From assembly GCF_053078305.1 (NCBI RefSeq), contig NZ_CP166879.1: a stretch of 64,000 bases of DNA. One strand, 5' to 3'. The notes under the pieces are model-generated. The model was not told the origin of the DNA. It worked only from the letters and a program-made list of their open reading frames with translations, and did no database searches. The translations under genes were made by a program, and so were the position numbers. Positions 4,476 to 60,536 of the stretch are shown one piece after another (position 1 is the first letter of the stretch; each line of letters begins with the position of its first letter).

Positions 4476-4698
4476 AACTCAACGGCATCTTTGAAGCCTG
4501 CCTTTTTGCAGGCTTCCTCGCTCGCTCCGGTCGCGTGCTGATGTACGCTTCCGGGGTTTTGCCGCGTCGTTAGCACAATGCGATGCAATTGATTTAGTGT
4601 ATATCTAATAATTGTAAACAAGCACTGTTTTCCCCGGGAAGGTTCTGATGCGTCCGTGTTAAACTAAGAGAATCTATCTCTTTTGTACCTTCAGGACG

Positions 4699-5694
4699 AT
4701 GAAAAAGAAAAGACCCGTACTTCAGGATGTGGCTGACCGTGTAGGCGTGACCAAAATGACGGTCAGCCGTTTTTTACGCAACCCGGAGCAGGTTTCCGTC
4801 GCTCTACGCGGCAAGATTGCCGCGGCTCTTGATGAACTGGGCTATATTCCCAATCGTGCGCCCGATATCCTCTCTAACGCCACCAGCCGGGCGATTGGCG
4901 TCCTGTTACCTTCTCTCACCAACCAGGTTTTCGCGGAAGTATTACGCGGAATCGAAAGCGTCACCGACGCGCACGGTTATCAGACCATGCTGGCCCACTA
5001 CGGTTATAAACCGGAAATGGAGCAAGAACGTCTCGAATCAATGCTCTCATGGAATATCGACGGACTTATCCTCACCGAACGTACCCACACGCCGCGCACC
5101 TTAAAGATGATTGAAGTGGCGGGGATTCCCGTGGTGGAACTGATGGACAGCAAGTCGCCATGCCTCGATATTGCCGTCGGTTTTGATAACTTTGAAGCGG
5201 CACGCCAGATGACCGCCGCCATTATTGCTCGCGGGCATCGCCATATTGCCTATCTCGGCGCACGTCTCGACGAACGTACTATCATCAAACAGAAGGGATA
5301 CGAACAGGCGATGCGGGATGCAGGCCTGGTGCCGTATAGCGTGATGGTTGAGCAATCTTCTTCTTACTCTTCCGGTATTGAACTGATTCGCCAGGCGCGG
5401 CGGGAATATCCGCAGCTGGATGGCGTGTTCTGTACTAATGATGATCTGGCGGTCGGCGCGGCGTTTGAATGTCAGCGTCTGGGGTTAAAAGTTCCTGACG
5501 ATATGGCGATTGCCGGTTTCCACGGTCATGACATTGGTCAGGTGATGGAGCCACGACTTGCGAGCGTGCTGACGCCGCGTGAGCGGATGGGCAGTATTGG
5601 CGCTGAACGCCTTCTGGCGCGTATTCGTGGCGAATCTGTGACACCGAAAATGTTAGATTTAGGTTTCACCTTGTCACCGGGCGGATCTATTTAA
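4699..5694 (+). CDS. gntR: LacI-family transcriptional repressor of gluconate genes
   Basis: 331-aa ORF; N-terminal HTH (VTKMTVSRFL) and periplasmic-binding-fold C-terminus; directly upstream of gntK-gntU. Confidence 0.93.
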   Translation: MKKKRPVLQDVADRVGVTKMTVSRFLRNPEQVSVALRGKIAAALDELGYIPNRAPDILSNATSRAIGVLLPSLTNQVFAEVLRGIESVTDAHGYQTMLAHYGYKPEMEQERLESMLSWNIDGLILTERTHTPRTLKMIEVAGIPVVELMDSKSPCLDIAVGFDNFEAARQMTAAIIARGHRHIAYLGARLDERTIIKQKGYEQAMRDAGLVPYSVMVEQSSSYSSGIELIRQARREYPQLDGVFCTNDDLAVGAAFECQRLGLKVPDDMAIAGFHGHDIGQVMEPRLASVLTPRERMGSIGAERLLARIRGESVTPKMLDLGFTLSPGGSI

Positions 5695-5772
5695 GCCCAC
5701 AAATTTGAAGTAGCTCACACTTATACACTTAAGGCACGGATGGATATTGCTTCTGATATTGTCCGGCCGGAG

Positions 5773-5803
5773 AATGTTACCGATAACAGTTACCCGTAAC
5801 ATT
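5773..5803 (+). promoter_or_regulatory. GntR operator pair in the gntKU promoter (aatgttaccgataacagttacccgtaacatt)
   Basis: Two inverted ATGTTACCC...GGGTAACAT-like half-sites; the same motif recurs upstream of gntT at 43925-43946. Confidence 0.7.
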
Positions 5804-5832
5804 TTTAATTCTTGTATTGTGGGGGCACCACT

Positions 5833-6360
5833 TTGAGCACGACTAACCATGATCACCACATTTACGTCTTGATGGGCGTATCGGGCAGCGGCAAATCTGC
5901 GGTCGCAAGTGAAGTGGCGCATCAACTTCATGCCGCGTTTCTTGATGGCGATTTCCTCCATCCACGGCGCAATATCGAAAAAATGGCGTCTGGCGAACCG
6001 CTGAATGACAACGATCGCAAACCGTGGTTGCAGGCGCTGAACGACGCCGCGTTTGCTATGCAGCGCACTAATAAAGTGTCGCTGATCGTCTGTTCTGCAT
6101 TGAAAAAACACTATCGCGACTTGCTGCGTGAAGGTAATCCGAATCTCTCTTTCATCTACCTGAAAGGCGATTTTGATGTGATTGAAAGCCGCCTGAAAGC
6201 GCGCAAAGGCCATTTCTTTAAAACCCAAATGTTGGTGACGCAGTTTGAAACGCTGCAGGAGCCGGGTGCGGACGAAACCGATGTACTGGTGGTGGATATC
6301 GATCAACCGCTGGAAGGTGTTGTGGCAAGCACCATTGAGGTTATTAAAAAAGGCAAATAA
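5833..6360 (+). CDS. gntK: Gluconokinase (thermoresistant)
   Basis: P-loop GVSGSGKS; start placed at the TTG giving MSTTNHDHHIYVLMG (175 aa), not the upstream in-frame ATG of the ORF track. Confidence 0.88.
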   Translation: MSTTNHDHHIYVLMGVSGSGKSAVASEVAHQLHAAFLDGDFLHPRRNIEKMASGEPLNDNDRKPWLQALNDAAFAMQRTNKVSLIVCSALKKHYRDLLREGNPNLSFIYLKGDFDVIESRLKARKGHFFKTQMLVTQFETLQEPGADETDVLVVDIDQPLEGVVASTIEVIKKGK

Positions 6361-6363
6361 GTA

Positions 6364-7704
6364 GTGACTACATTAACGCTTGTTTTAACAGCAGTAGGGT
6401 CTGTTTTACTGCTGCTGTTTTTAGTCATGAAGGCGCGTATGCACGCTTTCCTGGCTTTAATGGTGGTGTCCATGGGGGCTGGCCTTTTTTCCGGTATGCC
6501 GCTCGATAAAATCGCAGCGACGATGGAAAAAGGGATGGGAGGCACCCTCGGCTTCCTGGCGGTGGTTGTCGCCCTGGGAGCTATGTTTGGCAAGATCTTA
6601 CATGAAACCGGCGCAGTCGATCAGATTGCCGTCAAAATGCTTAAATCCTTCGGTCACAGCCGCGCGCATTATGCCATCGGCCTTGCGGGGCTGGTCTGTG
6701 CGCTACCGCTGTTCTTTGAAGTGGCGATTGTTCTGCTGATTAGCGTTGCTTTCTCAATGGCGCGCCACACCGGTACGAACCTGGTGAAGCTGGTAATCCC
6801 ATTATTCGCAGGCGTGGCGGCAGCGGCGGCGTTCCTGGTGCCAGGGCCAGCGCCAATGCTGCTGGCATCGCAGATGAACGCCGATTTTGGCTGGATGATC
6901 CTGATTGGCCTGTGTGCGGCAATTCCGGGAATGATTATTGCCGGGCCGCTGTGGGGTAACTTCATCAGCCGTTACGTTGAGCTGCATATTCCTGACGACA
7001 TCAGCGAGCCGCATCTCGGCGAAGGCAAAATGCCGTCCTTCGGATTCAGCCTGTCGCTGATCCTGCTGCCGCTGGTGCTGGTGGGGCTGAAAACCATTGC
7101 CGCGCGTTTTGTGCCGGAAGGCTCTACCGCTTACGAATGGTTCGAGTTTATTGGTCATCCGTTTACCGCGATTCTGGTTGCTTGTCTGGTAGCGATTTAT
7201 GGCCTGGCAATGCGTCAGGGCATGCCAAAAGACAAAGTGATGGAGATTTGCGGTCACGCGCTGCAACCGGCGGGGATCATTCTGCTGGTGATTGGTGCGG
7301 GCGGCGTGTTCAAACAGGTGCTGGTTGACTCTGGCGTAGGTCCGGCACTGGGCGAAGCGTTAACCGGCATGGGCCTGCCGATTGCTATCACCTGCTTCGT
7401 GCTGGCAGCTGCAGTGCGCATCATTCAGGGGTCTGCCACCGTTGCCTGTTTAACGGCGGTGGGGCTGGTGATGCCGGTCATTGAACAACTGAACTACTCC
7501 GGTGCGCAAATGGCGGCGCTGTCGATTTGTATCGCCGGTGGTTCGATTGTTGTCAGCCACGTTAACGACGCCGGTTTCTGGTTGTTCGGTAAATTTACCG
7601 GCGCGACCGAAGCCGAAACGCTGAAAACCTGGACCATGATGGAAACCATCCTCGGCACTGTTGGTGCCATCGTTGGGATGATTGCGTTCCAGCTGTTGAG
7701 TTAA
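6364..7704 (+). CDS. gntU: Low-affinity gluconate:H+ symporter (GntP family)
   Basis: 446-aa polytopic membrane protein; strongly similar to gntT (42454..43770) in the same window; 3 nt after gntK. Confidence 0.92.
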   Translation: MTTLTLVLTAVGSVLLLLFLVMKARMHAFLALMVVSMGAGLFSGMPLDKIAATMEKGMGGTLGFLAVVVALGAMFGKILHETGAVDQIAVKMLKSFGHSRAHYAIGLAGLVCALPLFFEVAIVLLISVAFSMARHTGTNLVKLVIPLFAGVAAAAAFLVPGPAPMLLASQMNADFGWMILIGLCAAIPGMIIAGPLWGNFISRYVELHIPDDISEPHLGEGKMPSFGFSLSLILLPLVLVGLKTIAARFVPEGSTAYEWFEFIGHPFTAILVACLVAIYGLAMRQGMPKDKVMEICGHALQPAGIILLVIGAGGVFKQVLVDSGVGPALGEALTGMGLPIAITCFVLAAAVRIIQGSATVACLTAVGLVMPVIEQLNYSGAQMAALSICIAGGSIVVSHVNDAGFWLFGKFTGATEAETLKTWTMMETILGTVGAIVGMIAFQLLS

Positions 7705-7717
7705 TTACTGCGACAAA

Positions 7718-7759
7718 TTACTGCGAGCTTGCTCGCAGTAATTCATTTCTCTTTTCTCC
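7718..7759 (+). terminator. Rho-independent terminator-like hairpin after gntU
   Basis: Arms ttactgcgagc / gctcgcagtaa around a tt centre, followed by the U-rich ttcatttctcttttctcc. Confidence 0.55.
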
Positions 7760-7843
7760 TCTCTTCATCTTTTTGATCTCTCTCGCAAATTTACCTGCAA
7801 ATAATCCGTTCTAATCACTGCCTAAAGATCGCAGGAGATAAAG

Positions 7844-9940
7844 ATGGAAAAGCACGCAGCTGAATTGCTTTTACAGCGGATGTTAGGAAATACCACCGCT
7901 ACTTTCAGGGAAGGGCAATGGGAAGCCATAGACGCGGTGGTGAACCAACGGCGAAAACTGCTGGTTGTCCAACGCACTGGCTGGGGGAAAAGTGCTGTGT
8001 ACTTCATCGCCAGTAAAATCTTCCGCGATCGCGGCGCTGGCCCGACAATTATCATCTCTCCTTTGCTTGCCCAGATGCGTAACCAGGTTGCCGCCGCTGA
8101 ACGGTTAGGTATTACGGCTGAAACGTTGAATTCTACAAACAGGGAAGAATGGCAGCGCATTAGCGATAAGTTGCTGCAAGGTGCGGTCGATTGCTTGCTG
8201 GTTTCCCCGGAACGTTTGGCAAACCAGGACTTTATCGAAACGGTTTTATATCCTATAGCCGATCGTATTGGCTTGCTTGTGGTCGACGAGGCGCACTGCA
8301 TCTCTGATTGGGGCCACGATTTTCGCCCGGATTACCGACGTATATTAGATATTTTGCGCCAACTACCTGCGAATACCCCTGTTCTGGGTACAACCGCGAC
8401 AGCGAATAACCGTGTCGTTGAGGATATCCGTCAGCAATTGGGTGACATTGTGATTCAGCGTGGAACGCTGGCTCGCGAAAGTTTGGCGCTTGATGCCTTA
8501 GTCTTAGGTGAACAGTCATCCCGTCTGGCATGGTTAGCAACGGTTATCCCTCAGTTTTCCAAATCGGGAATTGTTTATACCCTGACTACTCGCGATGCCG
8601 AACTTGTCGCCGAGTGGTTAAGGAAAAATGGTATCAGTGCATTTGCTTACTACAGCGGCGTGACTTGTGAAGGCGCGGAAGATTCTAATACTGCCAGGGA
8701 ATATCTGGAGCAGGCGTTGCTGGCAAATAAAATTAAAGTGCTGGTTGCGACAACGGCGCTGGGAATGGGCTTTGACAAACCGGATTTGGGGTTTGTTATT
8801 CATTACCAGATGCCAGGTTCGATAGTTGGTTACTACCAACAGGTGGGGCGTGCCGGTCGCGGTATCGATTCTGCTGTTGGCATACTGCTTTGCGGCAGTG
8901 AAGACCGTGCTATTCATAAATTCTTCCGTGAAAGCGCCTTTCCTGCGGAGGCGCAAATTCATGAATTACTCAACGTACTTAGCGTGAATGACGGTCTTAC
9001 CTTACGAGGCATTGAACAACGGACGAATCTCCGTTATGGGCAAATAGAAAAAGCACTGAAATTATTGGTAGCTGAAAATCCATCGCCTGTGGTGTATACC
9101 GAGAAATTATGGCGCAGAACAATTGTCAGTTTTTCTCCTGACCATGAACGAATTAACCATTTGATGAATCAGAGAAAAAGTGAGCTGGCAGACGTTGAAA
9201 GCTATATCACGACCAAGGAGTGCAAAATGCAATTTCTGCGCCGCGCACTCGATGAGCCAGGTGCCGAACATTGTGGTAAATGTAGCAGTTGTCTTCAGCA
9301 TCCGTTGTTGTCGCCCGACATTGATAGCGGCTTACTCCATGCGGCAAACTTATTTATTAAACACGCTGACCTGTCATTAAATCTCAATAAACAGGTGGCA
9401 GCTGGGGCTTTTACGCAATACGGATTTAAAGGGAACTTGCCTGCGATTTTACAAGGATCTACGGGGCGAATCCTTTCTCGTTGGGGAGATTCCGGGTGGG
9501 GAAAGCAGGTAGCACAGGAGAAAAAAACGGGGCGATTCAGTGATGAACTGGTGGAGGCATGTGCGGAAATGGTTCGCCAACGCTGGAATCCGCATCCTGA
9601 ACCAACCTGGGTATGCTGCGTTCCTTCATTACAGCACCTCGACCTGGTTCCTGATTTTGCCCGGCGACTGGCGGCGAAACTTGGCTTACCTTTTATTGAT
9701 GCCATTGAAAAAGTCGTGGACAATCCACCGCAGAAAATGCAGCAAAACCGTTTCCACCAGTGTCAAAATCTCGACGGGGCGTTTGTGATTACCCCTCCTT
9801 TGATGCCTGGTCCGGCGTTGCTGGTTGACGATATCGTGGATTCTGCATGGACGCTGACAGTTCTGACAGCACTGTTACGCCAGGCAGGTTGCCCGACGGT
9901 TTATCCTCTTGCCCTTGCTTCTACCTCGGTAAAAAATTGA
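7844..9940 (+). CDS. RecQ-family superfamily-2 DNA helicase with Zn-binding module, fused to a C-terminal ComF/GntX-like phosphoribosyltransferase-fold domain (apparently degenerate)
   Basis: 698 aa. Walker A QRTGWGKS; RecQ-type motif II VVDEAHCISDWGHDFRPDY; later helicase motifs TATA and QQVGRAGRG; four-Cys cluster CKMQ...HCGKCSSC. The last ~150 aa parallel the GntX C-terminus (NLDGAFVI...ALLVDDIVDSAWTLTVLTALLRQAGCPTV vs GntX NLKNAFRL...MVIVDDVVTTGSTVAEIAQLLLRNGAATV). Good SD (gcaggag) 8 nt upstream. I do not recall this gene in K-12. Confidence 0.8.
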   Translation: MEKHAAELLLQRMLGNTTATFREGQWEAIDAVVNQRRKLLVVQRTGWGKSAVYFIASKIFRDRGAGPTIIISPLLAQMRNQVAAAERLGITAETLNSTNREEWQRISDKLLQGAVDCLLVSPERLANQDFIETVLYPIADRIGLLVVDEAHCISDWGHDFRPDYRRILDILRQLPANTPVLGTTATANNRVVEDIRQQLGDIVIQRGTLARESLALDALVLGEQSSRLAWLATVIPQFSKSGIVYTLTTRDAELVAEWLRKNGISAFAYYSGVTCEGAEDSNTAREYLEQALLANKIKVLVATTALGMGFDKPDLGFVIHYQMPGSIVGYYQQVGRAGRGIDSAVGILLCGSEDRAIHKFFRESAFPAEAQIHELLNVLSVNDGLTLRGIEQRTNLRYGQIEKALKLLVAENPSPVVYTEKLWRRTIVSFSPDHERINHLMNQRKSELADVESYITTKECKMQFLRRALDEPGAEHCGKCSSCLQHPLLSPDIDSGLLHAANLFIKHADLSLNLNKQVAAGAFTQYGFKGNLPAILQGSTGRILSRWGDSGWGKQVAQEKKTGRFSDELVEACAEMVRQRWNPHPEPTWVCCVPSLQHLDLVPDFARRLAAKLGLPFIDAIEKVVDNPPQKMQQNRFHQCQNLDGAFVITPPLMPGPALLVDDIVDSAWTLTVLTALLRQAGCPTVYPLALASTSVKN

Positions 9941-11142
9941 TGAATCTTTCAGCCAATGCACAAGCAACTCTCCTGCTAACCAGCGATTTTTCTCGCGCGG
10001 CGGCGAGTGAGTATAAACCTCTTAGTAATAGTGAATGGGGGAAGTTTGCATTATGGCTGAAGCACCAACGTATCAGTCCCGCCGAGCTTCTGGTGCCGCA
10101 ACCGCAAGAGAAACTTACAGGCTGGAGCGATCCGCGTATTTCTCAGGAGCGTATTCTTGGCTTGCTGGCGCGTGGTCATAGTCTGGCGTTGGCGGTAGAT
10201 AAGTGGCAACGCGCCGGTTTATGGATCTTAACCCGCGGAGATGCTGATTATCCCGTTCGCTTGAAAAACCGATTGCGAACGGATGCACCTCCCGTTTTAT
10301 TTGGCTGCGGGAATAAAGCATTACTGCAAGCGGAAGGTATGGCGATTGTTGGCTCGCGAGATGCTCCGACTGACGATTTGCGCTATACCCAACAACTGGC
10401 CGCGAAACTGGCCCAACAGGGGATTTGCGTTATCTCTGGTGGTGCGCGAGGTATTGATGAATGTGCAATGGCGTCGGTACTGGAGGCCGGGGGAACTGCC
10501 GTTGGCGTATTAGCTGATAGCTTGTTAAAAACGAGTACGTTAGTGAAATGGCGTGAAGGGCTTATAGCAGGCAACCTGGTGTTGATTTCGCCGTTTTACC
10601 CAGAGGTACGTTTCACCGTCGGCAATGCGATGGCGCGAAATAAATATATTTATTGCCTTGCTGAAAGCGCAATGGTTGTACGTGCGGGAATGACCGGTGG
10701 AACGATAACCGGGGCGATGGAGGCATTAAAACATCAGTGGCTGCCTGTGCAGGTTAAACCAAATCAGGATATGCAATCAGCCAATTCACGATTAGTAGAA
10801 AATGGGGCGTCATGGAGTGCTGAACAGGCTGAGAATGTGACGATCAGACTGCCAGACGTTCCTGGGCTGATGTATGACAGAGCACTCCGTAACGCTCAAC
10901 CAGAACTGTTTTCGCTGCATGAAGATGACGCAAATTACGCAGTAATGCCCGCGTATACGCCTGTCGATTTTTATCAACTCTTTGTGGCGGAACTGGCGAT
11001 CCTTGCAAAGGAATCGATAAGTATTGAAAGGCTGGCGTCTTGTACTGGTTTAACCATCGAACAAATTAGTGTGTGGCTGAACCGCGCAGAAGAAGAGGGA
11101 AGGGTTATCCGATTGGGCGAAGGTCATTATCAGTTCAGGTAA
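9940..11142 (+). CDS. DprA/Smf-like (SLOG-superfamily Rossmann) DNA-processing protein with N- and C-terminal extensions
   Basis: Start taken at the ATG overlapping the helicase stop by 1 nt (ttgATGaat), not the upstream in-frame ATG of the ORF track. DprA core motifs MAIVGSRDAPTD, ISGGARGIDECAMASVLEAGG, ISPFYPEVRF, ARNKYIYCLAESAMVV. About 90-aa C-terminal tail, possibly a winged helix. Confidence 0.8.
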   Translation: MNLSANAQATLLLTSDFSRAAASEYKPLSNSEWGKFALWLKHQRISPAELLVPQPQEKLTGWSDPRISQERILGLLARGHSLALAVDKWQRAGLWILTRGDADYPVRLKNRLRTDAPPVLFGCGNKALLQAEGMAIVGSRDAPTDDLRYTQQLAAKLAQQGICVISGGARGIDECAMASVLEAGGTAVGVLADSLLKTSTLVKWREGLIAGNLVLISPFYPEVRFTVGNAMARNKYIYCLAESAMVVRAGMTGGTITGAMEALKHQWLPVQVKPNQDMQSANSRLVENGASWSAEQAENVTIRLPDVPGLMYDRALRNAQPELFSLHEDDANYAVMPAYTPVDFYQLFVAELAILAKESISIERLASCTGLTIEQISVWLNRAEEEGRVIRLGEGHYQFR

Positions 11143-22833: not shown

Positions 22834-24351
22834 ATGGACAGAATGATGCCAAATAGAAAATGGATTTTGACCTCGCTGATAATGACTTTTTTCGGCATCC
22901 CCATACTGGCGCAATTTTTGGCAGCGGTTGTTGCCATGCTGGGTGTCGGGCTTACCGGTATTATTGAAGTTTGTAATATCCTTATCACGCCAACAATTTA
23001 TCTTCTACTCAACGTCTTTATGCTGACGCTGGGGGCGATAATAATATTTTTCTCTGGTCGCGTGTGGGCCGGTGATAGCGCGCCAGAAAACAGAGAAATA
23101 GCCGTCTGGCGGCAATGCTTTTTTCTCTTACCCGCGCTATTAACCCTGGTTGGCTGGATAATCACGCTACATCTGGCAGATTATCAATTTCGCCAGATGG
23201 GAGCTGGTTGGTTGGCAAACCTTATGCTTCCCTGGTTGGGCGTTTTTTTAGTCTCATTAGTGGGTGGTGAGTACTGGTGGATGGTCATTATTCCCGTTGG
23301 GGTGCATATCAGTTTTTCGCTGGGATACGCCTGGCCGACCAGATATCCTTTATCCGGCACGTCCGGACTACGTTGCCGTAACTTACTCCTGTTTCTACTT
23401 CTCTTACTTGGTATTGTCGCCGGGTATCAGGCCCATTTATATAAGCAGCAAAATCCTGGTGTCGGTGTACGCGAAAATATTGATATCTGGGCCTGGCGAC
23501 CCGATAAACTCAATAATCGACTGACGCCGCTGCGTGGCAAACCGCAAATTCAGTTTAGGCAAAACTGGCCGCGAATCGATGGCGCCACGGCTGCGTACCC
23601 AATTTATGCTTCTGCATTTTATGCATTAAGTGTAATACCAGAGGATTTTCACGTTTGGGATTATCTGGAAAACTCTCGTACGCCAGAAGCATATAACAAA
23701 ATCGTTAAGGGCGATGCTGATATTATTTTCGTGGCGCAACCTTCCGGTGGGCAAAAAAAACGTGCAAAGGAATCTGGTGTCACTTTGCTGTACACCCCCT
23801 TTGCCCGTGAAGCATTCGTTTTCATCGTCAATGCGGATAATCCGGTTAATTCCCTGACTGAACAACAGGTGCGTGACATTTTCAGTGGTGCAATTACCAA
23901 CTGGCGTACTTTTGGCGGTAACGATCAGGAGATCCAGACCTGGCAGCGCCCGGAAGACTCTGGCAGCCAGACAGTGATGCAATCACAGGTCATGAAAAAT
24001 GTCCGCATGATCTCGCCGCAGGAAACGGAAGTGGCAAGCGTGATGGAGGGAATGATTAAAGTCGTTGCCGAATACCGTAATACAAACAACGCAATAGGCT
24101 ATACCTTCCGCTATTACGCGACGCAAATGAATGCTGATAAAAATATAAAATTGCTAGCGATTAACGGTATTACACCGACGGCGGAAAACATTCGCAACGG
24201 CAAATATGCGTACATCGTCGATGCATTTATGGTGACGAGAGAAAATAAAACGTCAGAAACACAAAAACTGGTCGAATGGTTTTTAACGCCGCAGGGGCAG
24301 AGTCTGGTAGAAGATGTGGGATATGTGCCGCTGTATAAAATCTTACCTTAA
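22834..24351 (+). CDS. Membrane-anchored protein: N-terminal polytopic domain (~6 predicted TM helices) plus C-terminal periplasmic solute-binding-protein-like domain (PBP superfamily, possibly phosphate/oxyanion type)
   Basis: 505-aa ORF. First ~200 aa hydrophobic; C-terminal part has SBP-like segments (DGATAAYPIYASAFY, FVAQPSGGQ, LLAINGITPTAENIRNGKYAY). K-12 carries only a pseudogene (yzgL) at this position as far as I recall. SBP subfamily is a guess. Confidence 0.6.
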   Translation: MDRMMPNRKWILTSLIMTFFGIPILAQFLAAVVAMLGVGLTGIIEVCNILITPTIYLLLNVFMLTLGAIIIFFSGRVWAGDSAPENREIAVWRQCFFLLPALLTLVGWIITLHLADYQFRQMGAGWLANLMLPWLGVFLVSLVGGEYWWMVIIPVGVHISFSLGYAWPTRYPLSGTSGLRCRNLLLFLLLLLGIVAGYQAHLYKQQNPGVGVRENIDIWAWRPDKLNNRLTPLRGKPQIQFRQNWPRIDGATAAYPIYASAFYALSVIPEDFHVWDYLENSRTPEAYNKIVKGDADIIFVAQPSGGQKKRAKESGVTLLYTPFAREAFVFIVNADNPVNSLTEQQVRDIFSGAITNWRTFGGNDQEIQTWQRPEDSGSQTVMQSQVMKNVRMISPQETEVASVMEGMIKVVAEYRNTNNAIGYTFRYYATQMNADKNIKLLAINGITPTAENIRNGKYAYIVDAFMVTRENKTSETQKLVEWFLTPQGQSLVEDVGYVPLYKILP

Positions 24352-24453
24352 GCAGGATAATCATATGGATACCGGTATTATTCGCCTGAACGCGGCCAAT
24401 GCTCGTTTTGTTTATCAACCGTTTACACGCAATCAGCGGAAGAGGGAGTAATT

Positions 24454-25230
24454 ATGCAATGCAGCCCCGCCATGCAGGCATTAATTGAGCAGATTTATCA
24501 TATTTTTCGTCGTTATCCGGTGCCGTCGAGATTTCATGTTTGTTGTCCTTACTGCTTTAGCGAAGAACAACAACAAGCCTTAAGAGGGGTTTCACTGCGT
24601 GCCATACCTTTCCCTTTATTACATGCCTGGGGAACAAGTATTGGTCCTACCCCGCAAAATGATGATGAGATTCGCTATTTATTACCCAGATTGTTTGAAT
24701 TTATTTCCCAAAGGCAATTTCCAGGCATTTATGAAGGCTGCTGTTTACAGAGAATAGCAGAGGCAGATAACCAGAACTGGCGAACGGACGAACTACAAAT
24801 AATTAGCGATTTCGCCTATTTATATATGCAGGATTGGGTGTCGGCTAAGGAGGTCGTAGAACTGGAAATAATATTAGAAATGTTTTATCGCGGTGGTATA
24901 AAGATTGAACCCTTACTTGACGCCATTATGTCCATTTCCGGTTACTGGCCGACGGCGTCTATGGCATGTTTGCTCTGGCGTAACAGTAAAGAATACGTCG
25001 AAAATAGCGATTTTGAGCAGAGTGATGATAATAAAACTATTACCACTCAAATTAATACCTGGGCTAGAAATAATCATCCTTTTCTGAAAGAAAGAGCGCG
25101 ACAAGCGATTGAGAACCCACTAAAACAGCCTGAACCAATGACAGAATATCAAGTCTGGGAAGACGACTGGATGATTGATGAGTGTTTATGCGCGATGTAT
25201 GACGCATCACCCGAACAATCAGGACAATAA
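24454..25230 (+). CDS. Hypothetical soluble protein, Cys-containing N-terminus (CCPYC); no family recognised
   Basis: 258-aa ORF, AT-richer than flanking core genes; its stop is 2 nt before the next ORF's start. Confidence 0.5.
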   Translation: MQCSPAMQALIEQIYHIFRRYPVPSRFHVCCPYCFSEEQQQALRGVSLRAIPFPLLHAWGTSIGPTPQNDDEIRYLLPRLFEFISQRQFPGIYEGCCLQRIAEADNQNWRTDELQIISDFAYLYMQDWVSAKEVVELEIILEMFYRGGIKIEPLLDAIMSISGYWPTASMACLLWRNSKEYVENSDFEQSDDNKTITTQINTWARNNHPFLKERARQAIENPLKQPEPMTEYQVWEDDWMIDECLCAMYDASPEQSGQ

Positions 25231-25232
25231 AG

Positions 25233-25823
25233 ATGAATAAAATCAGACTTTATATTTATCCGCTATATCTCGGCTTTGTTATTGTGCCGTTGTTGGTGTG
25301 GCCGACGGTGGTTGTTGTTGGTATCACACTGAGTTTTCTAATGGAGATGCTGTTCTCAAATTCGTTCATGCACAGGCGTATTTCCCTTCTGGAATTACAA
25401 CTTGGGTTATTGGCTGAATATACGCTTTTGTTCTGCGCCATATGTTGCGTTGGTTGGCAATTTGCTCGCATAACTCAATCTGAATTGAAAAGCAAACTGC
25501 ATTATTGGCTGGTATTTGTACCAGTTTATTTCTGGTTGCTCCTGTGGAATATCATTTTCTATGTCGCGCCAGCGAAAATTGCATTGCTGGAAAATATGCG
25601 CAGTTTCTTTCTGACCGTTGTCTGGCTCCCACTGAATTTTTCGCCATTTTGGTCTCAACCGTGGATTGACTTTGTCGGTCCAATAAGCGCACAGCTTGGT
25701 TTTGCGTTGGGATATTATTGCCAGTGGCGTAGCAAAAATAGAAGCCAGAGGAAGAAGTGGGGCGAGTGGGTAATGTGCTTAAGTTTTGTTACGTTGGGTA
25801 TGATGGCGTGGGCTTTGCGGTAA
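25233..25823 (+). CDS. Hypothetical integral membrane protein (4-5 predicted TM helices)
   Basis: 196-aa hydrophobic ORF tightly coupled to the preceding ORF; AT-rich. Confidence 0.5.
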   Translation: MNKIRLYIYPLYLGFVIVPLLVWPTVVVVGITLSFLMEMLFSNSFMHRRISLLELQLGLLAEYTLLFCAICCVGWQFARITQSELKSKLHYWLVFVPVYFWLLLWNIIFYVAPAKIALLENMRSFFLTVVWLPLNFSPFWSQPWIDFVGPISAQLGFALGYYCQWRSKNRSQRKKWGEWVMCLSFVTLGMMAWALR

Positions 25824-25876: not shown

Positions 25877-25975
25877 GCCTGATGCGGCGTGAACGCCTTA
25901 TCAGGCCTACAAAATCATGCAAATTCAACATATTGCATAAACCACGTAGGCCTGATAAGCGTAGCGCATCAGGCA
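25877..25975. repeat. BIME: two inverted REP sequences (gcctgatgcggcgtgaacgccttatcaggcctac ... gtaggcctgataagcgtagcgcatcaggca)
   Basis: Canonical enterobacterial REP consensus (GATGCGGCG ... GGCCTAC) read directly; intergenic, downstream of glpD. Confidence 0.85.
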
Positions 25976-31475: not shown

Positions 31476-32702
31476 ATGAATTACGAATTACTGACCACTG
31501 AAAATGCCTCGGTAAAAATGTGGACCAAAGGCGTGCCGGTAGAAGCCGATGCGCGTCAGCAACTTATTAATACGGCGAAGATGCCGTTTATTTTCAAACA
31601 TATTGCGGTAATGCCTGATGTACACCTGGGTAAAGGTTCCACCATTGGTAGCGTGATCCCGACCAAAGGGGCGATTATTCCGGCGGCGGTGGGCGTGGAT
31701 ATTGGCTGTGGAATGAACGCACTACGTACCGCTTTAACGGCGGCTGACCTGCCGGAAAACCTGGCGGAGCTGCGTCAGGCGATTGAAACTGCGGTGCCGC
31801 ACGGGCGTACCACTGGCCGTTGTAAACGTGATAAAGGCGCATGGGAAAACCCGCCTGTTAACGTCGATGCGAAATGGGCTGAGCTGGAGGCCGGTTATCA
31901 GTGGTTAACGCAAAAATATCCGCGTTTCCTTAACACTAACAACTATAAACACCTGGGAACGCTGGGAACGGGTAACCACTTTATTGAAATCTGCCTTGAT
32001 GAGTCGGACCAGGTGTGGATTATGCTGCACTCCGGTTCACGCGGAATTGGTAATGCCATCGGGACTTACTTTATCGATCTGGCGCAAAAAGAGATGCAGG
32101 ACCAACTTGAGACGTTGCCGTCGCGTGATCTGGCGTACTTTATGGAAGGTACGGAATACTTTGATGATTACCTGAAAGCCGTGGCCTGGGCGCAGCTTTT
32201 TGCCAGCCTTAACCGCGATGCGATGATGGAAAACGTGGTAACAGCGTTGCAGAGCATTACGCAGAAAACGGTCAGACAGCCACAAACGCTGGCGATGGAA
32301 GAGATCAACTGTCACCACAACTATGTGCAAAAAGAACAGCACTTTGGTGAAGAGATCTATGTGACGCGTAAAGGCGCGGTGTCTGCGCGTGCTGGTCAAT
32401 ATGGAATTATTCCCGGTTCGATGGGTGCGAAAAGCTTTATCGTCCGTGGGCTGGGAAATGAAGAGTCGTTCTGTTCGTGCAGCCACGGTGCCGGGCGGGT
32501 AATGAGCCGTACTAAAGCGAAAAAACTGTTCAGCGTGGAAGATCAAATTCGTGCTACCGCGCATGTGGAATGCCGTAAAGATGCCGAAGTGATCGACGAA
32601 ATCCCGATGGCGTATAAAGATATTGATGCGGTGATGGCGGCACAAAGCGATCTGGTGGAAGTTATCTATACCCTGCGTCAGGTGGTGTGCGTAAAAGGAT
32701 AA
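31476..32702 (+). CDS. rtcB: RNA-splicing ligase RtcB (3'-phosphate/5'-OH RNA ligase)
   Basis: 408-aa ORF of the expected length and position in the rtcR/rtcBA locus. Confidence 0.95.
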   Translation: MNYELLTTENASVKMWTKGVPVEADARQQLINTAKMPFIFKHIAVMPDVHLGKGSTIGSVIPTKGAIIPAAVGVDIGCGMNALRTALTAADLPENLAELRQAIETAVPHGRTTGRCKRDKGAWENPPVNVDAKWAELEAGYQWLTQKYPRFLNTNNYKHLGTLGTGNHFIEICLDESDQVWIMLHSGSRGIGNAIGTYFIDLAQKEMQDQLETLPSRDLAYFMEGTEYFDDYLKAVAWAQLFASLNRDAMMENVVTALQSITQKTVRQPQTLAMEEINCHHNYVQKEQHFGEEIYVTRKGAVSARAGQYGIIPGSMGAKSFIVRGLGNEESFCSCSHGAGRVMSRTKAKKLFSVEDQIRATAHVECRKDAEVIDEIPMAYKDIDAVMAAQSDLVEVIYTLRQVVCVKG

Positions 32703-33783: not shown

Positions 33784-34269
33784 TTACTCCAGAGTAATGA
33801 GATACAGTAAGGTAAGTGACTGGAATGGTGAAGGTACAAAGGCATACTTCAGATAGAAATTGCGTACTGAATCGTCTAAGGCATGAACAATAAGCGCACG
33901 AACCCCTACCTGTTGAGCTATGGACATTGTGCGATAGACTGCATCTTTCAACAATGCGACGCCCAACCCTTTACCTGCCCAGGCTTGATCAATTGCCAGT
34001 CTGCCTAATACGACAACAGGCAACGATTCGGGAGCATTACGTCGCATGGCTCCAGGGGCCAAATTACGTTGAATACTGCCTGTAGAAAGGCAGTAATAGC
34101 CGATTACCTGGCGGGTATTGGCAATACAGATAACGTAAACACGAGACAGACCGGAGCTGTGATTTTTTAATGCTTTCTTTTTTAGCCATTCATTCATCCC
34201 GTGATCGGAACAGCAAAAGTCAGCCAGATTATGTTCAGACGTTAGGGGAGTAGGAGCCGTTATTCCCAT
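33784..34269 (-). CDS. GNAT-family acetyltransferase toxin (TacT/AtaT/ItaT/KacT-like; predicted aminoacyl-tRNA acetylating toxin)
   Basis: 161 aa; acetyl-CoA binding motif QAWAGKGLGVALL; start codon lies inside the last codons of the upstream DUF1778 ORF. I do not recall this pair in K-12. Confidence 0.75.
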   Translation of the reverse strand: MGITAPTPLTSEHNLADFCCSDHGMNEWLKKKALKNHSSGLSRVYVICIANTRQVIGYYCLSTGSIQRNLAPGAMRRNAPESLPVVVLGRLAIDQAWAGKGLGVALLKDAVYRTMSIAQQVGVRALIVHALDDSVRNFYLKYAFVPSPFQSLTLLYLITLE

Positions 34270-34544
34270 GGCGATTTACGATTCATCAACGCGTTAATTT
34301 TGGCCTGACGCTCAGCAGTGATGGGGGCGTCCAGGGCAGCCAGAAACGCATCGTATTGCTCGTCATCAAGGATGAATAGTCGTTGATCTAATAAGATGTC
34401 TTGCGCTTCACGGCATGCGGCATCCAGCATAAAATCAGTGCGCGATTTTGCGACCAGATTCGCTGCCATATCAATCAGGTCACGCTGTGAGGCTTTCGCT
34501 CTGATATTGATTGGCGCTTCTTTGCTTTCCGGTTTCATATTCAT
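34260..34544 (-). CDS. DUF1778-type (ribbon-helix-helix) antitoxin partnered with the GNAT toxin
   Basis: 94 aa; INIRAKASQRDLIDMAANLVAKSRTDFMLDAA is the typical DUF1778 N-terminus; upstream of and overlapping the toxin ORF by 10 nt. Confidence 0.75.
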   Translation of the reverse strand: MNMKPESKEAPINIRAKASQRDLIDMAANLVAKSRTDFMLDAACREAQDILLDQRLFILDDEQYDAFLAALDAPITAERQAKINALMNRKSPWE

Positions 34545-40324: not shown

Positions 40325-42409
40325 ATGGAAAGCAAACGTCTGGATAATGCCGCGCTGGCGGCGGGGATTAGCCCCAATTACATCAATGCCCACGGTAAAC
40401 CGCAGTCGATTAGCGCCGAAACCAAACGGCGTTTGCTTGACGCGATGCATCAACGTACCGCCACGAAAGTGGCGGTAACGCCAGTCCCGAATGTCATGGT
40501 TTATACCAGCGGCAAAAAAATGCCGATGGTGGTGGAGGGCAGCGGCGAATATAGCTGGCTGCTGACCACCGAAGAAGGAACGCAGTACAAAGGCCATATA
40601 ACGGGGGGCAAAGCGTTCAATCTACCGACGAAGCTGCCGGAAGGTTATCACACGCTGACGCTTACCCAGGAAGACCAGCGCGCGCATTGCAGGGTGATTG
40701 TCGCCCCGAAACGCTGTTACGAACCGCAGGCGTTGCTGAATAAACAAAAGCTGTGGGGTGCCTGCGTCCAGCTTTATACGCTGCGATCGGAAAAAAACTG
40801 GGGTATTGGGGATTTTGGCGATCTCAAAGCGATGCTGGTGGATGTGGCAAAACGTGGCGGGTCGTTCATCGGCCTGAACCCGATTCATGCGCTCTATCCG
40901 GCAAATCCGGAGAGCGCCAGCCCATACAGCCCGTCTTCTCGCCGCTGGCTGAATGTGATTTATATCGACGTTAACGCCGTCGAAGATTTCCATCTTAGCG
41001 AAGAGGCTCAGGCCTGGTGGCAGTTGCCGACCACGCAACAGACGCTGCAACAGGCGCGGGATGCCGACTGGGTCGATTACTCCACGGTTACCGCCCTAAA
41101 AATGACAGCATTACGAATGGCGTGGAAAGGTTTCGCGCAACGTGATGATGAGCAGATGGCCGCGTTTCGCCAGTTTGTTGCAGATCAAGGCGACAGCCTG
41201 TTCTGGCAGGCAGCCTTTGATGCGCTACATGCCCAGCAAGTGAAAGAGGACGAAATGCGCTGGGGCTGGCCTGCATGGCCAGAGATGTATCAGAACGTGG
41301 ATTCACCAGAAGTGCGTCAGTTCTGCGAAGAACATCGCGATGACGTTGATTTTTATCTCTGGTTGCAGTGGCAGGCTTACAGCCAGTTTGCCGCCTGCTG
41401 GGAGATAAGCCAGGGCTATGAAATGCCGATTGGCTTGTATCGTGATCTGGCGGTTGGCGTAGCGGAAGGTGGGGCGGAAACCTGGTGCGACCGTGAACTG
41501 TATTGCCTGAAAGCGTCGGTTGGCGCGCCGCCGGATATCCTCGGCCCGTTGGGGCAGAACTGGGGATTGCCGCCAATGGACCCGCATATCATCACCGCGC
41601 GTGCTTATGAACCGTTTATCGAGCTGTTGCGTGCCAATATGCAAAACTGCGGCGCATTACGAATTGACCATGTGATGTCGATGCTGCGTTTGTGGTGGAT
41701 ACCGTATGGCGAGACGGCGGATCAGGGGGCATACGTACACTATCCGGTGGATGATCTGCTCTCAATTCTGGCACTCGAAAGTAAGCGTCATCGCTGCATG
41801 GTGATTGGTGAAGATCTCGGTACCGTACCGGTAGAGATTGTCGGCAAGCTGCGCAGCAGCGGTGTTTACTCCTACAAAGTGCTCTATTTCGAAAACGACC
41901 ACGAGAAGACGTTCCGTTCACCGAAAGCGTACCCGGAGCAGTCGATGGCGGTTGCGGCGACACACGACCTGCCAACGCTGCGTGGTTACTGGGAGAGCGG
42001 GGATCTAACTCTGGGCAAAACCCTGGGGCTGTATCCGGATGAAGTGGTACTGCGCGGTCTGTATCAGGATCGCGAACTGGCGAAGCAAGGGCTGCTGGAT
42101 GCACTGCATAAATATGGTTGTCTGCCAAAACGTGCCGGGCATAAGGCATCGTTGATGTCGATGACGCCGACGCTGAACCGTGGTTTGCAGCGCTACATTG
42201 CCGACAGTAACAGTGCTCTGTTAGGACTACAGCCGGAAGACTGGCTGGATATGGCCGAACCGGTGAATATTCCTGGCACCAGTTACCAGTATAAAAACTG
42301 GCGACGCAAGCTTTCCGCAACGCTTGAGACGATGTTTGCCGATGATGGCGTGAACAAGTTGCTGAAGGATTTGGACAGACGGCGCAGAGCTGCAGCGAAG
42401 AAGAAGTAG
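40325..42409 (+). CDS. malQ: 4-alpha-glucanotransferase (amylomaltase)
   Basis: 694-aa ORF immediately downstream of malP. Confidence 0.95.
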   Translation: MESKRLDNAALAAGISPNYINAHGKPQSISAETKRRLLDAMHQRTATKVAVTPVPNVMVYTSGKKMPMVVEGSGEYSWLLTTEEGTQYKGHITGGKAFNLPTKLPEGYHTLTLTQEDQRAHCRVIVAPKRCYEPQALLNKQKLWGACVQLYTLRSEKNWGIGDFGDLKAMLVDVAKRGGSFIGLNPIHALYPANPESASPYSPSSRRWLNVIYIDVNAVEDFHLSEEAQAWWQLPTTQQTLQQARDADWVDYSTVTALKMTALRMAWKGFAQRDDEQMAAFRQFVADQGDSLFWQAAFDALHAQQVKEDEMRWGWPAWPEMYQNVDSPEVRQFCEEHRDDVDFYLWLQWQAYSQFAACWEISQGYEMPIGLYRDLAVGVAEGGAETWCDRELYCLKASVGAPPDILGPLGQNWGLPPMDPHIITARAYEPFIELLRANMQNCGALRIDHVMSMLRLWWIPYGETADQGAYVHYPVDDLLSILALESKRHRCMVIGEDLGTVPVEIVGKLRSSGVYSYKVLYFENDHEKTFRSPKAYPEQSMAVAATHDLPTLRGYWESGDLTLGKTLGLYPDEVVLRGLYQDRELAKQGLLDALHKYGCLPKRAGHKASLMSMTPTLNRGLQRYIADSNSALLGLQPEDWLDMAEPVNIPGTSYQYKNWRRKLSATLETMFADDGVNKLLKDLDRRRRAAAKKK

Positions 42410-42421
42410 AGTGCGGTTGAT

Positions 42422-42442
42422 GCCGGATGCGATGCATCCGGC
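42422..42442. terminator. Palindrome gccggatgcgatgcatccggc between convergent malQ and gntT (bidirectional terminator / REP-like)
   Basis: Perfect 9-bp arms, seen in the sequence. Confidence 0.55.
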
Positions 42443-42453
42443 AGTCAGTGTTA

Positions 42454-43770
42454 TCAAATCACCATATTCAGCAGCAGACAGCCTACCAGACCGCACACCG
42501 AGATAATGGTTTCCAGCATCGACCAAGATTTGATGGTCTCGCCGATAGTCAGGTTAAAGTACTCTTTGAACAGCCAGAAGCCCGGATCGTTCACATGAGA
42601 GAAAATCACACTACCGGAACCAACCGCAATAACCATCAGCTCCGGGCTAACACCCGTCGTTGCAATCAGCGGTGCCGCGATACCACCCGCAGTGATTGCC
42701 GCAACGGTTGCGGAACCCAGCGCGATACGCAGTACGGCAGCAATCGACCAGGCCATCAGCAGCGGAGAAATGTTGGTTTCGTGCATCATGGAAGCAATGT
42801 ATTTGTCCACGCCGCTGTCTACCAGCACCTGCTTGAACGCACCGCCACCACCGATGATCAACAGCATCATCGCAATGATTTTGATGGAAGAAACCAGCGT
42901 GTCGTTAATCTGATCCATTGAACGACCACGGTTCAGACCAAAGGTGAACATCGCAATCAGCACGGCAATCAGCGTAGCCATTACCGGGTCACCGAGGAAC
43001 TCCGCTACCGGCAGGAAAGCGTGACCTTTCGGCAGGATCATTTCGGCAATCGCACGCATCGCCATCAGTACTACCGGCACCAGAGAGGTCCAGACGCTGA
43101 CGCCAAAGCTCGGCATCTCTTCTTCGCTGAAGGTTTTCGCGCTGTAGAGACCTTCCGGAATTGGCTTATCGATACCTTTCAACACGCGAGCGTAAACCGG
43201 ACCGGCGAGAATCACGGTCGGGATTGCCAGAATAGTACCGTACAGCAGGGTTTTACCCATATCGGCATTGAAAATGGTGGCAATCGCAGTCGGACCCGGA
43301 TGCGGTGGCAGGAAGCCGTGGGTCACAGACAGTGCAGCCGCCATTGGTACACCAACATACAGCAGTGGAATATTCGCGGAAGCCGCGATGGTAAACACCA
43401 GCGGCAGCATCAGCACAAAGCCCACTTCATAGAACAGGGCAAAACCAACGGTAAAACCGGTCAGTACCACCGCCCACTGGATGTGTTTTTTACCAAATTT
43501 GGCAATCAGCGTGGTGGCGATACGTTGTGCGCCACCGCAGTCTGCCAGCATTTTGCCCAGCATTGCGCCAAAACCCATGATCAGGGCAAGGCTACCGAGC
43601 GTCCCGCCGACACCGGCTTTGATGGAGCCAATAACTTTATCCAGCGGCATTCCTTGCATTAATCCAACAGCAAGCGCCACGAGGACGAGAGCGATGAAGC
43701 CGTTCATTTTGAAGCGGATCATCAGGAGCAACAACAAGATTACACCGATAGCAACAATGACTAATGGCAT
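42454..43770 (-). CDS. gntT: High-affinity gluconate:H+ symporter
   Basis: 438-aa GntP-family permease, paralogous to gntU. Confidence 0.93.
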   Translation of the reverse strand: MPLVIVAIGVILLLLLMIRFKMNGFIALVLVALAVGLMQGMPLDKVIGSIKAGVGGTLGSLALIMGFGAMLGKMLADCGGAQRIATTLIAKFGKKHIQWAVVLTGFTVGFALFYEVGFVLMLPLVFTIAASANIPLLYVGVPMAAALSVTHGFLPPHPGPTAIATIFNADMGKTLLYGTILAIPTVILAGPVYARVLKGIDKPIPEGLYSAKTFSEEEMPSFGVSVWTSLVPVVLMAMRAIAEMILPKGHAFLPVAEFLGDPVMATLIAVLIAMFTFGLNRGRSMDQINDTLVSSIKIIAMMLLIIGGGGAFKQVLVDSGVDKYIASMMHETNISPLLMAWSIAAVLRIALGSATVAAITAGGIAAPLIATTGVSPELMVIAVGSGSVIFSHVNDPGFWLFKEYFNLTIGETIKSWSMLETIISVCGLVGCLLLNMVI

Positions 43771-43924
43771 GATTTACCTGGCCTTTCATTTGTTATGGGT
43801 AACGTCAATTTTCTGACGACAAACTCTAATTATCCCAATCGGGAACAGAGATATTGCGGCACCACGACTGATACCCACTAAAACTAATTATTGTAGTCAG
43901 ATGTCAGGAGTATGTTTGGTACCC

Positions 43925-43946
43925 ATGTGAATGATACGGGTAACAT
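43925..43946. promoter_or_regulatory. GntR operator in the gntT promoter (minus-strand atgttacccgtatcattcacat)
   Basis: Same ATGTTACCCGTA motif as in the gntK promoter. Confidence 0.65.
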
Positions 43947-44069
43947 CTGGCGTTTGAGAATCACCAGAGCGGGGTAAATTTAAATTATGAGAGGTTGGTC
44001 ATATTATCGCGGGGAAACGAAGGGAGGGATTTGCCAAAGCAATGCTGCGCCAACGTCTGGCACATGTTC

Positions 44070-44130
<61 letters not shown>

Positions 44131-44706
44131 TTAGTAGTAGGAGTGTTCGCCGCGCTGGTGTTCGGTGAGATCGCGCACACCTTTCAGCTCCGGGAATTCG
44201 TTTAGTAGCTGCTTCTCGATCCCTTCTTTCAGCGTCACATCGACCATGGAACAACCGTTACAGCCGCCGCCAAATTGCAGAATGGCGTAACCGTCTTCGG
44301 TGATTTCCATCAGTGAAACGCGGCCACCGTGACCAGCAAGCTGTGGGTTGATCTGCGACTGCAGCATATACTCCACGCGCTCCATCAGTGGTGCATCGTC
44401 TGCCACTTTACGCATTTTGGCGTTAGGCGCTTTCAGTGTTAGCTGAGAACCCAACTGGTCGGTAACAAAATCGATCTCTGCATCTTCCAGGTATGGTGCG
44501 CTTAACTCATCAACATACGCGGTCAGCAGGTCAAATTTCAGGGCGGTGTCGGTGGCTTCCACGGCATCCGGCGGACAATAAGAAACACCACATTCAGCGT
44601 TAGGCGTGCCAGGGTTAATCACAAATACGCGGATTTGTGTCCCTTCTTCCTGATTTGCCAGCAGTTTGGCAAAGTGCGCTTGTGCAGCATCGGAAATACG
44701 GATCAT
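44131..44706 (-). CDS. nfuA: Fe-S cluster carrier protein NfuA
   Basis: 191 aa; C-terminal Nfu domain with CNGC motif. Confidence 0.93.
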
Positions 44707-44764
44707 AGTAATGGCCTAATAGTTGACTATTTTAGTTGGTTATAATACGCCCATCATCGAGGCT

Positions 44765-46256
<1,492 letters not shown>

Positions 46257-59657: not shown

Positions 59658-60536
59658 TTAATGAACTTGCGGATCTGCCGGAGACGCGTTGTTGCGGATT
59701 TCAGCAATATCCATCGCATTGAACAGATAGTGGTTACCGCAGTAATCACAATGCATGTCAATTTCGCCATCTTCCGCCAGGATGCTATCGACTTCTTCAT
59801 CAGGCAGCGTTTTCAGCGCATCGGCGCAACGTTCACGCGAGCAGGTGCATTTGAACTCCACATCCTGCGGATCGTAAACCGTCACCTCTTCTTCGTGATA
59901 CAAACGCCACAACACTTCGTTTGCCGGTAAGGTCAGCAGTTCTTCGGTTTTGATGGTTTCGGTTAGCGTCGCCAGGTGGTCGAAGTCGTCCTGCTGGGCA
60001 TTTTGCGCAGGCATTACCTGCAACAACATACCGCCTGCAGCCGGTTTGCCGTCTACGTCGCCGGTGCGAATAAACAGGCGCGTCGGCAGCTGTTCAGAAC
60101 GCATAAAGTAATCTTCCAGGCAGGCCGCCAGGGTATCACCTTCCAGACCAACTACGCCCTGATAGCGTTCGCCTTCGCTCGGGGTAATGGTGATCACCAC
60201 GTAACCATTGCCGACCAGCGTTTTCAGGTCGGCATTTTCTGGAATTTCGCCCTGCACGCGCGCCACACCGCGCATCTGCTGGTTGTTGTTACCGTTAATA
60301 ACCGCCAGATTCATCGGACCGTCGCCTTGCAGCTGTACGGTGATATCACCATCAAACTTCAGCGTAGCGGTTAACAGGCTGGTCGCAACCAGCAGTTCTG
60401 CCAGCACGTTTTTAACGGGCTGCGGATAATCGTGATTCTCAAGGATCTGTTGCAGGGTTTCCGAAACGGTTACCAGTTCGCCGCGAACGGCAAAGTTTTC
60501 AAACAGATAGCGATGTAATTGGTCATGTTGCGGCAT
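59658..60536 (-). CDS. hslO: Redox-regulated chaperone Hsp33
   Basis: Start placed at [15 protein letters not shown] (292 aa; the ORF track starts 2 codons earlier at MIM); C-terminal zinc centre CTCSRERC...CDYCG. Confidence 0.93.

Follow-up and report, generated by a model that had tools for sequence, protein, structure and literature searches.

A GntR operator motif shared by the gntKU and gntT promoters of Escherichia coli

A short palindromic sequence lies upstream of gntK in the window, that is, the whole 64,000-nucleotide stretch of DNA analysed here, which is a piece of an Escherichia coli chromosome with the gene order yhhW-gntRKU ... malQ-gntT-nfuA. The question that it raises is whether the same operator recurs at gntT and, if so, which regulator would read it. 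The original prediction, made from the raw sequence, had placed one GntR-type operator upstream of gntK (5773-5803) and another upstream of gntT (43925-43946), and had joined the two gluconate permease loci into one regulon. Sites of a common consensus are indeed found at both places, above chance. The motif is non-random, coincides with characterised operators, overlaps predicted promoter elements, is conserved, and has the gene for a cognate LacI-type regulator next to it. With high confidence, we regard the sites as GntR operators; GntR, the gluconate repressor of E. coli, is a dimeric protein of the LacI/GalR family whose gene is at 4699-5694.

The genes concerned are given below; both Pfam and the way in which almost identical genomes are annotated in RefSeq confirm the identities of gntR, gntK, gntU and gntT.

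4699-5694, plus strand: gntR, LacI/GalR-family gluconate repressor (RefSeq annotation of a 99.8% identical genome; Pfam)
5833-6360, plus strand: gntK, gluconokinase, with a TTG start at 5833 (annotation; Pfam SKI/AAA_33 kinase fold)
6364-7704, plus strand: gntU, GntP-family gluconate permease (annotation; PF02447, 2e-168)
42454-43770, minus strand: gntT, GntP-family gluconate permease (annotation; PF02447, 4.4e-189)

The repressor gene is directly upstream of gntK. Bases 4500-8500, where gntR, gntK and gntU are found, match 5424 of the 5426 complete E. coli genomes, while bases 42300-45000 carry malQ, gntT, nfuA and gntX. The distance between gntKU and gntT is 38 kb in this window, as had been predicted, compared with 31 kb in K-12; the difference is due to three strain-specific insertions.

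Operator sites at the two loci

When the whole 64-kb window was scanned with the consensus ATGTTACCCGTAACAT, allowing up to three mismatches, six strand-matches were returned, corresponding to four distinct sites. The chance expectation was 0.37 ± 0.68, and none of 100 shuffles reached six matches. All four sites, each with one to three mismatches, fall inside the two gnt regulatory regions. Their half-sites, TGTTAC and GTAACA, flank two central G/C bases.

5774-5789, no strand assigned: gntK operator a, ATGTTACCGATAACAG (consensus scan; weight matrix, 18.0 bits; as in K-12)
5787-5802, no strand assigned: gntK operator b, CAGTTACCCGTAACAT (consensus scan; weight matrix, 15.7 bits; as in K-12)
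43946-43931, minus strand (gntT sense strand): gntT operator O1, ATGTTACCCGTATCAT (consensus scan, promoter scan)
43805-43790, minus strand: gntT operator O2, ACGTTACCCATAACAA, in the 5' leader (consensus scan; weight matrix, 20.35 bits)

The stretch 5773-5803 reads AATGTTACCGATAACAGTTACCCGTAACATT and contains two sites of 16 bp each, which have 3 bp in common and centres 13 bp apart. At gntT, O2 is centred 141 bp downstream of O1 and lies 20-35 nt upstream of the ATG. The picture of one operator per locus consequently needs correction, in that gntK has an overlapping tandem pair and the second gntT site (43805-43790) had been missed. The statement that the two loci carry the same operator is true of the consensus, but the 12-mer named in the original prediction, ATGTTACCCGTA, occurs in exact form at gntT only, having GTTACCCGTA in common with gntK site b and ATGTTACC with site a; for this reason, "same operator" has to be read as "same consensus".

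Short AT-rich palindromes could resemble each other by chance, with no common function behind the likeness. The imperfect fit of every site to the consensus leaves some room for this explanation and, for comparison, the CRP-like pattern shows no enrichment in the window (22 found, 25.7 expected). On the other hand, the count of six matches, all at gnt promoters, is far from what shuffled sequence yields, and a matrix derived from other loci singles out the same sites. To obtain that matrix, we used K-12 loci at which the motif is present, namely the edd upstream region (ATGTTACCGGTAAAAT), the edd 5' end (TTGTTACGCGTAACAA) and the idnD/idnK intergenic region (ATGTTACGCATAACGT); the chance expectation at the edd-eda and idn loci was 0.02-0.03 per locus. 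The matrix was palindromised and built from these three out-of-window sites alone (edd twice, idnD/idnK once).

In this weight-matrix scan, which the original prediction had proposed, the four window sites took ranks 1-4 among approximately 64,000 positions, with scores of 15.7-20.4 bits, gntT O2 being the top match. The fifth match scored 12.5 bits, equal to the mean of the shuffle maxima (12.4), and matches 5 and 6 (60286-60301, 12.5 bits; 32359-32374, 11.8 bits) were only at the level of those maxima. One shuffle reached a maximum of 18.4 bits, the highest of all, meaning that neither gntK site (18.0 and 15.7 bits), taken alone, exceeds all of the shuffles; what the matrix supports it with is therefore the joint ranking and the location of the sites. 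With the occurrences at edd and idn, the regulon extends past the window to edd-eda and idnK/idnDOTR.

The repressor and its published operators

The product of gntR (4699-5694) contains a LacI-type helix-turn-helix (HTH) domain (PF00356, 6.6e-19) together with the LacI-family sugar-binding domain (PF00532/PF13377; Peripla_BP_1, 1.4e-32). Its alignment with solved LacI-family repressors, DNA-bound CcpA, PurR and LacI among them (structures such as 1rzr, 1pnr and 1efa), extends over the whole protein. A search of the same product with Pfam gave no match to PF00392, the winged helix of the GntR family. That family, whose type member is Bacillus subtilis GntR, shares with the E. coli protein the name and the role of a gluconate-responsive repressor of a gnt operon, but it has another fold and another DNA-binding domain, whereas here a LacI HTH is combined with a domain resembling periplasmic binding proteins. 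Judged from its domains, GntR here is a LacI/GalR-family protein despite its name, in agreement with its published assignment to the LacI/GalR subfamily with gluconate and gluconate-6-P as inducers (PMC3877293). Since the protein has a LacI HTH and not PF00392, the operator rules of the GntR family do not apply, and sites for a PF00392 regulator were ruled out.

The sites themselves look like those of LacI, PurR, CcpA and GalR, being 16-bp palindromes of two 6-7-bp half-sites around a central G/C dinucleotide. Binding as a dimer, an N-terminal LacI-type HTH and arrangements of two operators are all typical of the family. The gntK pair departs from this pattern in that its sites overlap, with centres merely 13 bp apart, a spacing for which solved dimer-DNA complexes offer no explanation (PMC4052901). 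GntR is also shorter than LacI (331 aa, compared with chains of 360 aa) and so probably lacks the C-terminal tetramerisation helix of LacI. Without that helix, any looping between O1 and O2 at gntT would need another contact.

All four sites are identical to those of K-12 MG1655, as are their positions relative to the genes. The same adjacent repressor gene and the same CRP-like sites (see below) belong to the K-12 GntI system (Izu et al. 1997, Porco et al. 1997, Peekhaus and Conway 1998, Tsunedomi et al. 2003), and the gntR-gntK spacer differs from that of K-12 by three single bases, all upstream of operator a and one of them in the predicted -10 hexamer.

Several of the sequences have a documented function. 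Both ATGTTACCGATAACAG and the consensus ATGTTACCCGTAACAT were the sequences recognised by GntR in mammalian gene switches controlled by gluconate, in which deletion or disruption of the site abolished the response, and the best response in the GntR-based switch came from an operator equal to gntK operator a (PMC10450161). In the cell-free PURE system, ATGTTACCCGTATCAT, with TATCAT as the -10 element, conferred repression by GntR that was relieved by gluconate (bioRxiv 10.1101/2023.01.10.523462). As PMC2230225 summarises Peekhaus and Conway 1998, the E. coli repressor binds in vitro to the gntT promoter, gluconate releases it, and both gluconate and 6-phosphogluconate inhibit this binding.

The proposal that two gluconate permease loci belong to one regulon is borne out by the GntR consensus at both, by the PF02447 membership of both gntU and gntT, and by the match with published operators. 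The original prediction had thereby picked out a real regulatory motif from raw sequence. The reading of a motif shared between gntK and gntT is correct but ordinary, the operators having been characterised already: the GntI regulon (gntKU and gntT under GntR and cAMP-CRP) is known from work done in 1996-2003. As GntI operators are also in use as synthetic-biology parts, the discovery value here is small. We add to the earlier description that the gntK sites form a tandem pair, that gntT has a second site and that the repressor is a LacI-family protein.

Promoter geometry and conservation

A promoter scan predicted a gntT promoter spanning 43960-43931 on the minus strand, and its -10 hexamer, TATCAT, is formed by the last six bases of operator O1; the predicted gntT start is at about 43924. 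A generic sigma-70 scan found no plus-strand promoter for gntK, a failure due to a weak -35. The gntK promoter was placed instead by cross-genus conservation, using 95 distinct orthologous upstream regions anchored on the operator. The predicted elements, together with two CRP-like sites, are as follows.

5704-5719, no strand assigned: CRP-like site TTTGAAGTAGCTCACA (one mismatch to TGTGA-N6-TCACA; about -70.5 from the predicted gntK start)
5747-5752, plus strand: predicted gntK -35, TTGCTT, inferred from a conserved block in the 95 anchored regions, 17 bp upstream of the -10
5770-5775, plus strand: predicted gntK -10, GAGAAT (conserved GA(C/G)AAT in the anchored regions)
43955-43960, minus strand: predicted gntT -35, TTCTCA, with an 18-bp spacer (promoter scan; invariant in the divergent allele described below)
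43988-44003, no strand assigned: CRP-like site TGAGAGGTTGGTCATA (two mismatches; about -71.5 from the predicted gntT start)

The last two bases of the predicted gntK -10 are the first two of operator a. With this placement, operator a would begin within the -10 and span the predicted start near 5782, and operator b would cover roughly +6 to +21 of the predicted transcript. The position of the sites relative to the -10 hexamer thus differs between the gntK and gntT promoters. The hexamer reads GAGAAT here, as opposed to GACAAT in K-12 and in the cross-genus consensus, the difference being at position 5772. Within the hexamer, conservation is lowest at this position.

Because the CRP pattern is unenriched in the window, we base the two CRP-like sites on their position, their conservation and published CRP control. 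The half-sites of TTTGAAGTAGCTCACA are conserved across genera in the anchored gntK upstream profile, and, going by the title of Peekhaus and Conway 1998, gntT is subject to control by CRP.

Conservation of the gntK operators was assessed by scanning species-representative genomes with GTTACNNNTAACNGTTACNNNTAAC, the gntK tandem site, which gave at least 120 loci. Of the 120 matches listed, 96 have a GntK homologue (64-98% identity) encoded 19-154 nt downstream of the tandem site, and 95 of these 96 gntK-linked loci, again among the matches listed, also have gntR upstream. The gntK-linked sites occur in Escherichia, Salmonella, Citrobacter, Klebsiella, Enterobacter, Kosakonia, Edwardsiella, Photorhabdus, Proteus and Providencia. 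As the motif itself served to gather the set, conservation of the columns that it specifies is built in; independent evidence consequently comes from the unspecified columns, the flanks and the linkage to gntK. In the anchored gntK regions, information per column was 1.85 bits inside the operators, 0.93 upstream and 0.16 downstream.

A second comparison was available within the species. In about 920 complete E. coli genomes, the nfuA-gntT upstream region is an allele just 80-90% identical to that of the window (43771-44130). For two genomes with such an allele (approximately 86% identical), 56 of the 365 non-coding columns differ from the window, and none of the 56 differences falls in the 32 positions of the gntT operators (hypergeometric P ~ 0.004). 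O1 and O2 are each conserved at 16 of 16 positions, with substitutions immediately flanking both sides of each, and in the same two genomes the CRP-like 22-mer of gntT is unchanged. This distribution of differences points to purifying selection on the operator sites. Chance similarity, to which we give practically no credence, is excluded by the consensus scan, the matrix ranking and the conservation in the divergent allele; the conservation across genera and the identity with tested operators also stand against it.

As side observations, the start of the gntT coding sequence is nearly unchanged in the divergent-allele genomes, and the non-coding divergence is large for variation within a species. 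Most of it is found around 44046-44110 (minus strand), a part of the nfuA-gntT spacer with a terminator-like hairpin (44064-44046) and, upstream of it, the palindrome GCCCGATGCGACGCTAAAGCGTCATTTCGGGCC, which we take to resemble a REP element.

Taken with the literature on binding and induction, this geometry suggests how GntR would act. In the absence of gluconate, the repressor occupies imperfect 16-bp palindromes (ATGTTAC-SS-GTAACAT). Those at gntKU are a pair that would start in the predicted -10 and cover the predicted start and the early transcribed region; those at gntT are O1 over the predicted -10 and O2 141 bp downstream in the leader. Occupied sites would presumably exclude or block RNA polymerase, until the repressor is released by gluconate or, at higher concentration, by 6-phosphogluconate. 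Activation by cAMP-CRP would come from about 70-72 bp upstream of each predicted start, and the same motif at edd-eda and idnK/idnDOTR makes these genes part of one gluconate regulon.

The overlapping pair at gntK and other features of the window

The tandem palindrome at 5774-5802, together with the TTTTT after it, might also be viewed mainly as an RNA hairpin, acting as a weak intrinsic terminator or attenuator of read-through from gntR. Izu 1997 reportedly described such read-through into gntKU, a run of five U residues follows the stem, and a 45-nt stretch folds with -9.1 kcal/mol (z = -2.15), 8 of 200 shuffles doing equally well. Nevertheless, the stem is AU-rich with an irregular interior, a terminator scan found none in 5600-5900, and Rfam returned no RNA family at the gntK or gntT locus. 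In most genera the site is followed by CAATT, not by a T-run, and conservation collapses downstream. Moreover, any near-palindrome of 29 bp will necessarily be able to form some hairpin. Neither of the single gntT sites folds (-0.1 and -0.4 kcal/mol), so a hairpin cannot account for what the two loci share. An intrinsic terminator at the gntK tandem site was rejected on the grounds of the AU-rich stem and the negative terminator scan. We regard the hairpin reading as very improbable; the gntK hairpin simply follows from the palindrome or is, at best, a small additional feature.

Returning to GntR operators, the sites could in addition be bound by the paralogous LacI-family regulator IdnR (GntH), which would link the GntI and GntII systems. 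This would complement the explanation by GntR and not replace it. The IdnR sites at idnK and idnDOTR are recognised by GntR as well, the two proteins being closest paralogues (PMC4052901); the idnD/idnK site fits the gnt consensus, and the title of Tsunedomi et al. speaks in the same direction. Against this stands the location of idnR, which is outside the window. On balance, we lean somewhat towards such sharing.

The 13-bp spacing of the GntR operators at gntK has a precedent. Ravcheev et al. 2014 described a 13-bp peak in the distances between LacI-family sites, in 110 operons; they cited functional evidence for the arrangement at gntKU of E. coli and found it conserved in over half of the gamma-proteobacterial operons regulated by GntR (PMC4052901). 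Solved structures fail to explain how dimers use sites offset by 13 bp (PMC4052901). Our species scan reproduces the published tandem arrangement and its conservation. The overlapping pair, kept from Escherichia to Proteus, might reflect a non-canonical binding mode of a LacI-family protein, an idea that we put forward tentatively and consider rather unlikely. Such a mode may consist of two dimers on distorted or partly unwound DNA, or of alternate occupancy of the two sites. If true, it would solve a puzzle that is already published and would not amount to a new system.

Tandem 13-bp-offset sites of the TGTTACCGGTAACA type were also seen far outside Enterobacterales (L013, 1349-1373; L005, 4375-4399; L051, 9984-10008). 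In Advenella, the tandem site is located between a 2-hydroxyacid dehydrogenase gene and that of a LacI-family regulator; in an actinomycete metagenome-assembled genome (MAG), it adjoins a LacI-family regulator, and in Streptomyces, a GH35 beta-galactosidase. In proteobacterial MAGs (L021, L042, L123), similar tandem sites precede GntR-like regulators (28-30% identity).

The window contains several stretches that are insertions relative to K-12. The one between gntU and yhgN (3.5 kb, absent from K-12) encodes a RecQ-like helicase (698 aa) and a DprA-like protein (431 aa) at 7844-11142 on the plus strand. The pair matches the PADLOC models PsyrT (E = 0, 1057 bits) and PsyrA (7e-202), and is present in 1650 of the 5426 complete E. 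coli genomes. Between glgP and glpD, a 2.7-kb insertion (23069-25758) is found at the spot that yzgL occupies in K-12. It harbours the gene for a protein of 505 aa that carries a PBP_like_2 domain (22834-24351), as well as two open reading frames, 24454-25230 and 25233-25823, that gave no Pfam match. A 0.9-kb insertion between rtcA and malT contains genes for a GNAT acetyltransferase (161 aa) and a TacA-like antitoxin (94 aa; PF08681, 1e-19) at 33784-34544 on the minus strand, a pair that looks like a TacAT-type toxin-antitoxin system. Finally, Rfam matches were obtained on the plus strand for the sRNA ES036/CssrF at 25911-25953 (39.3 bits, barely over the gathering score) and for the RyhB sRNA at 2437-2501 (83 bits).
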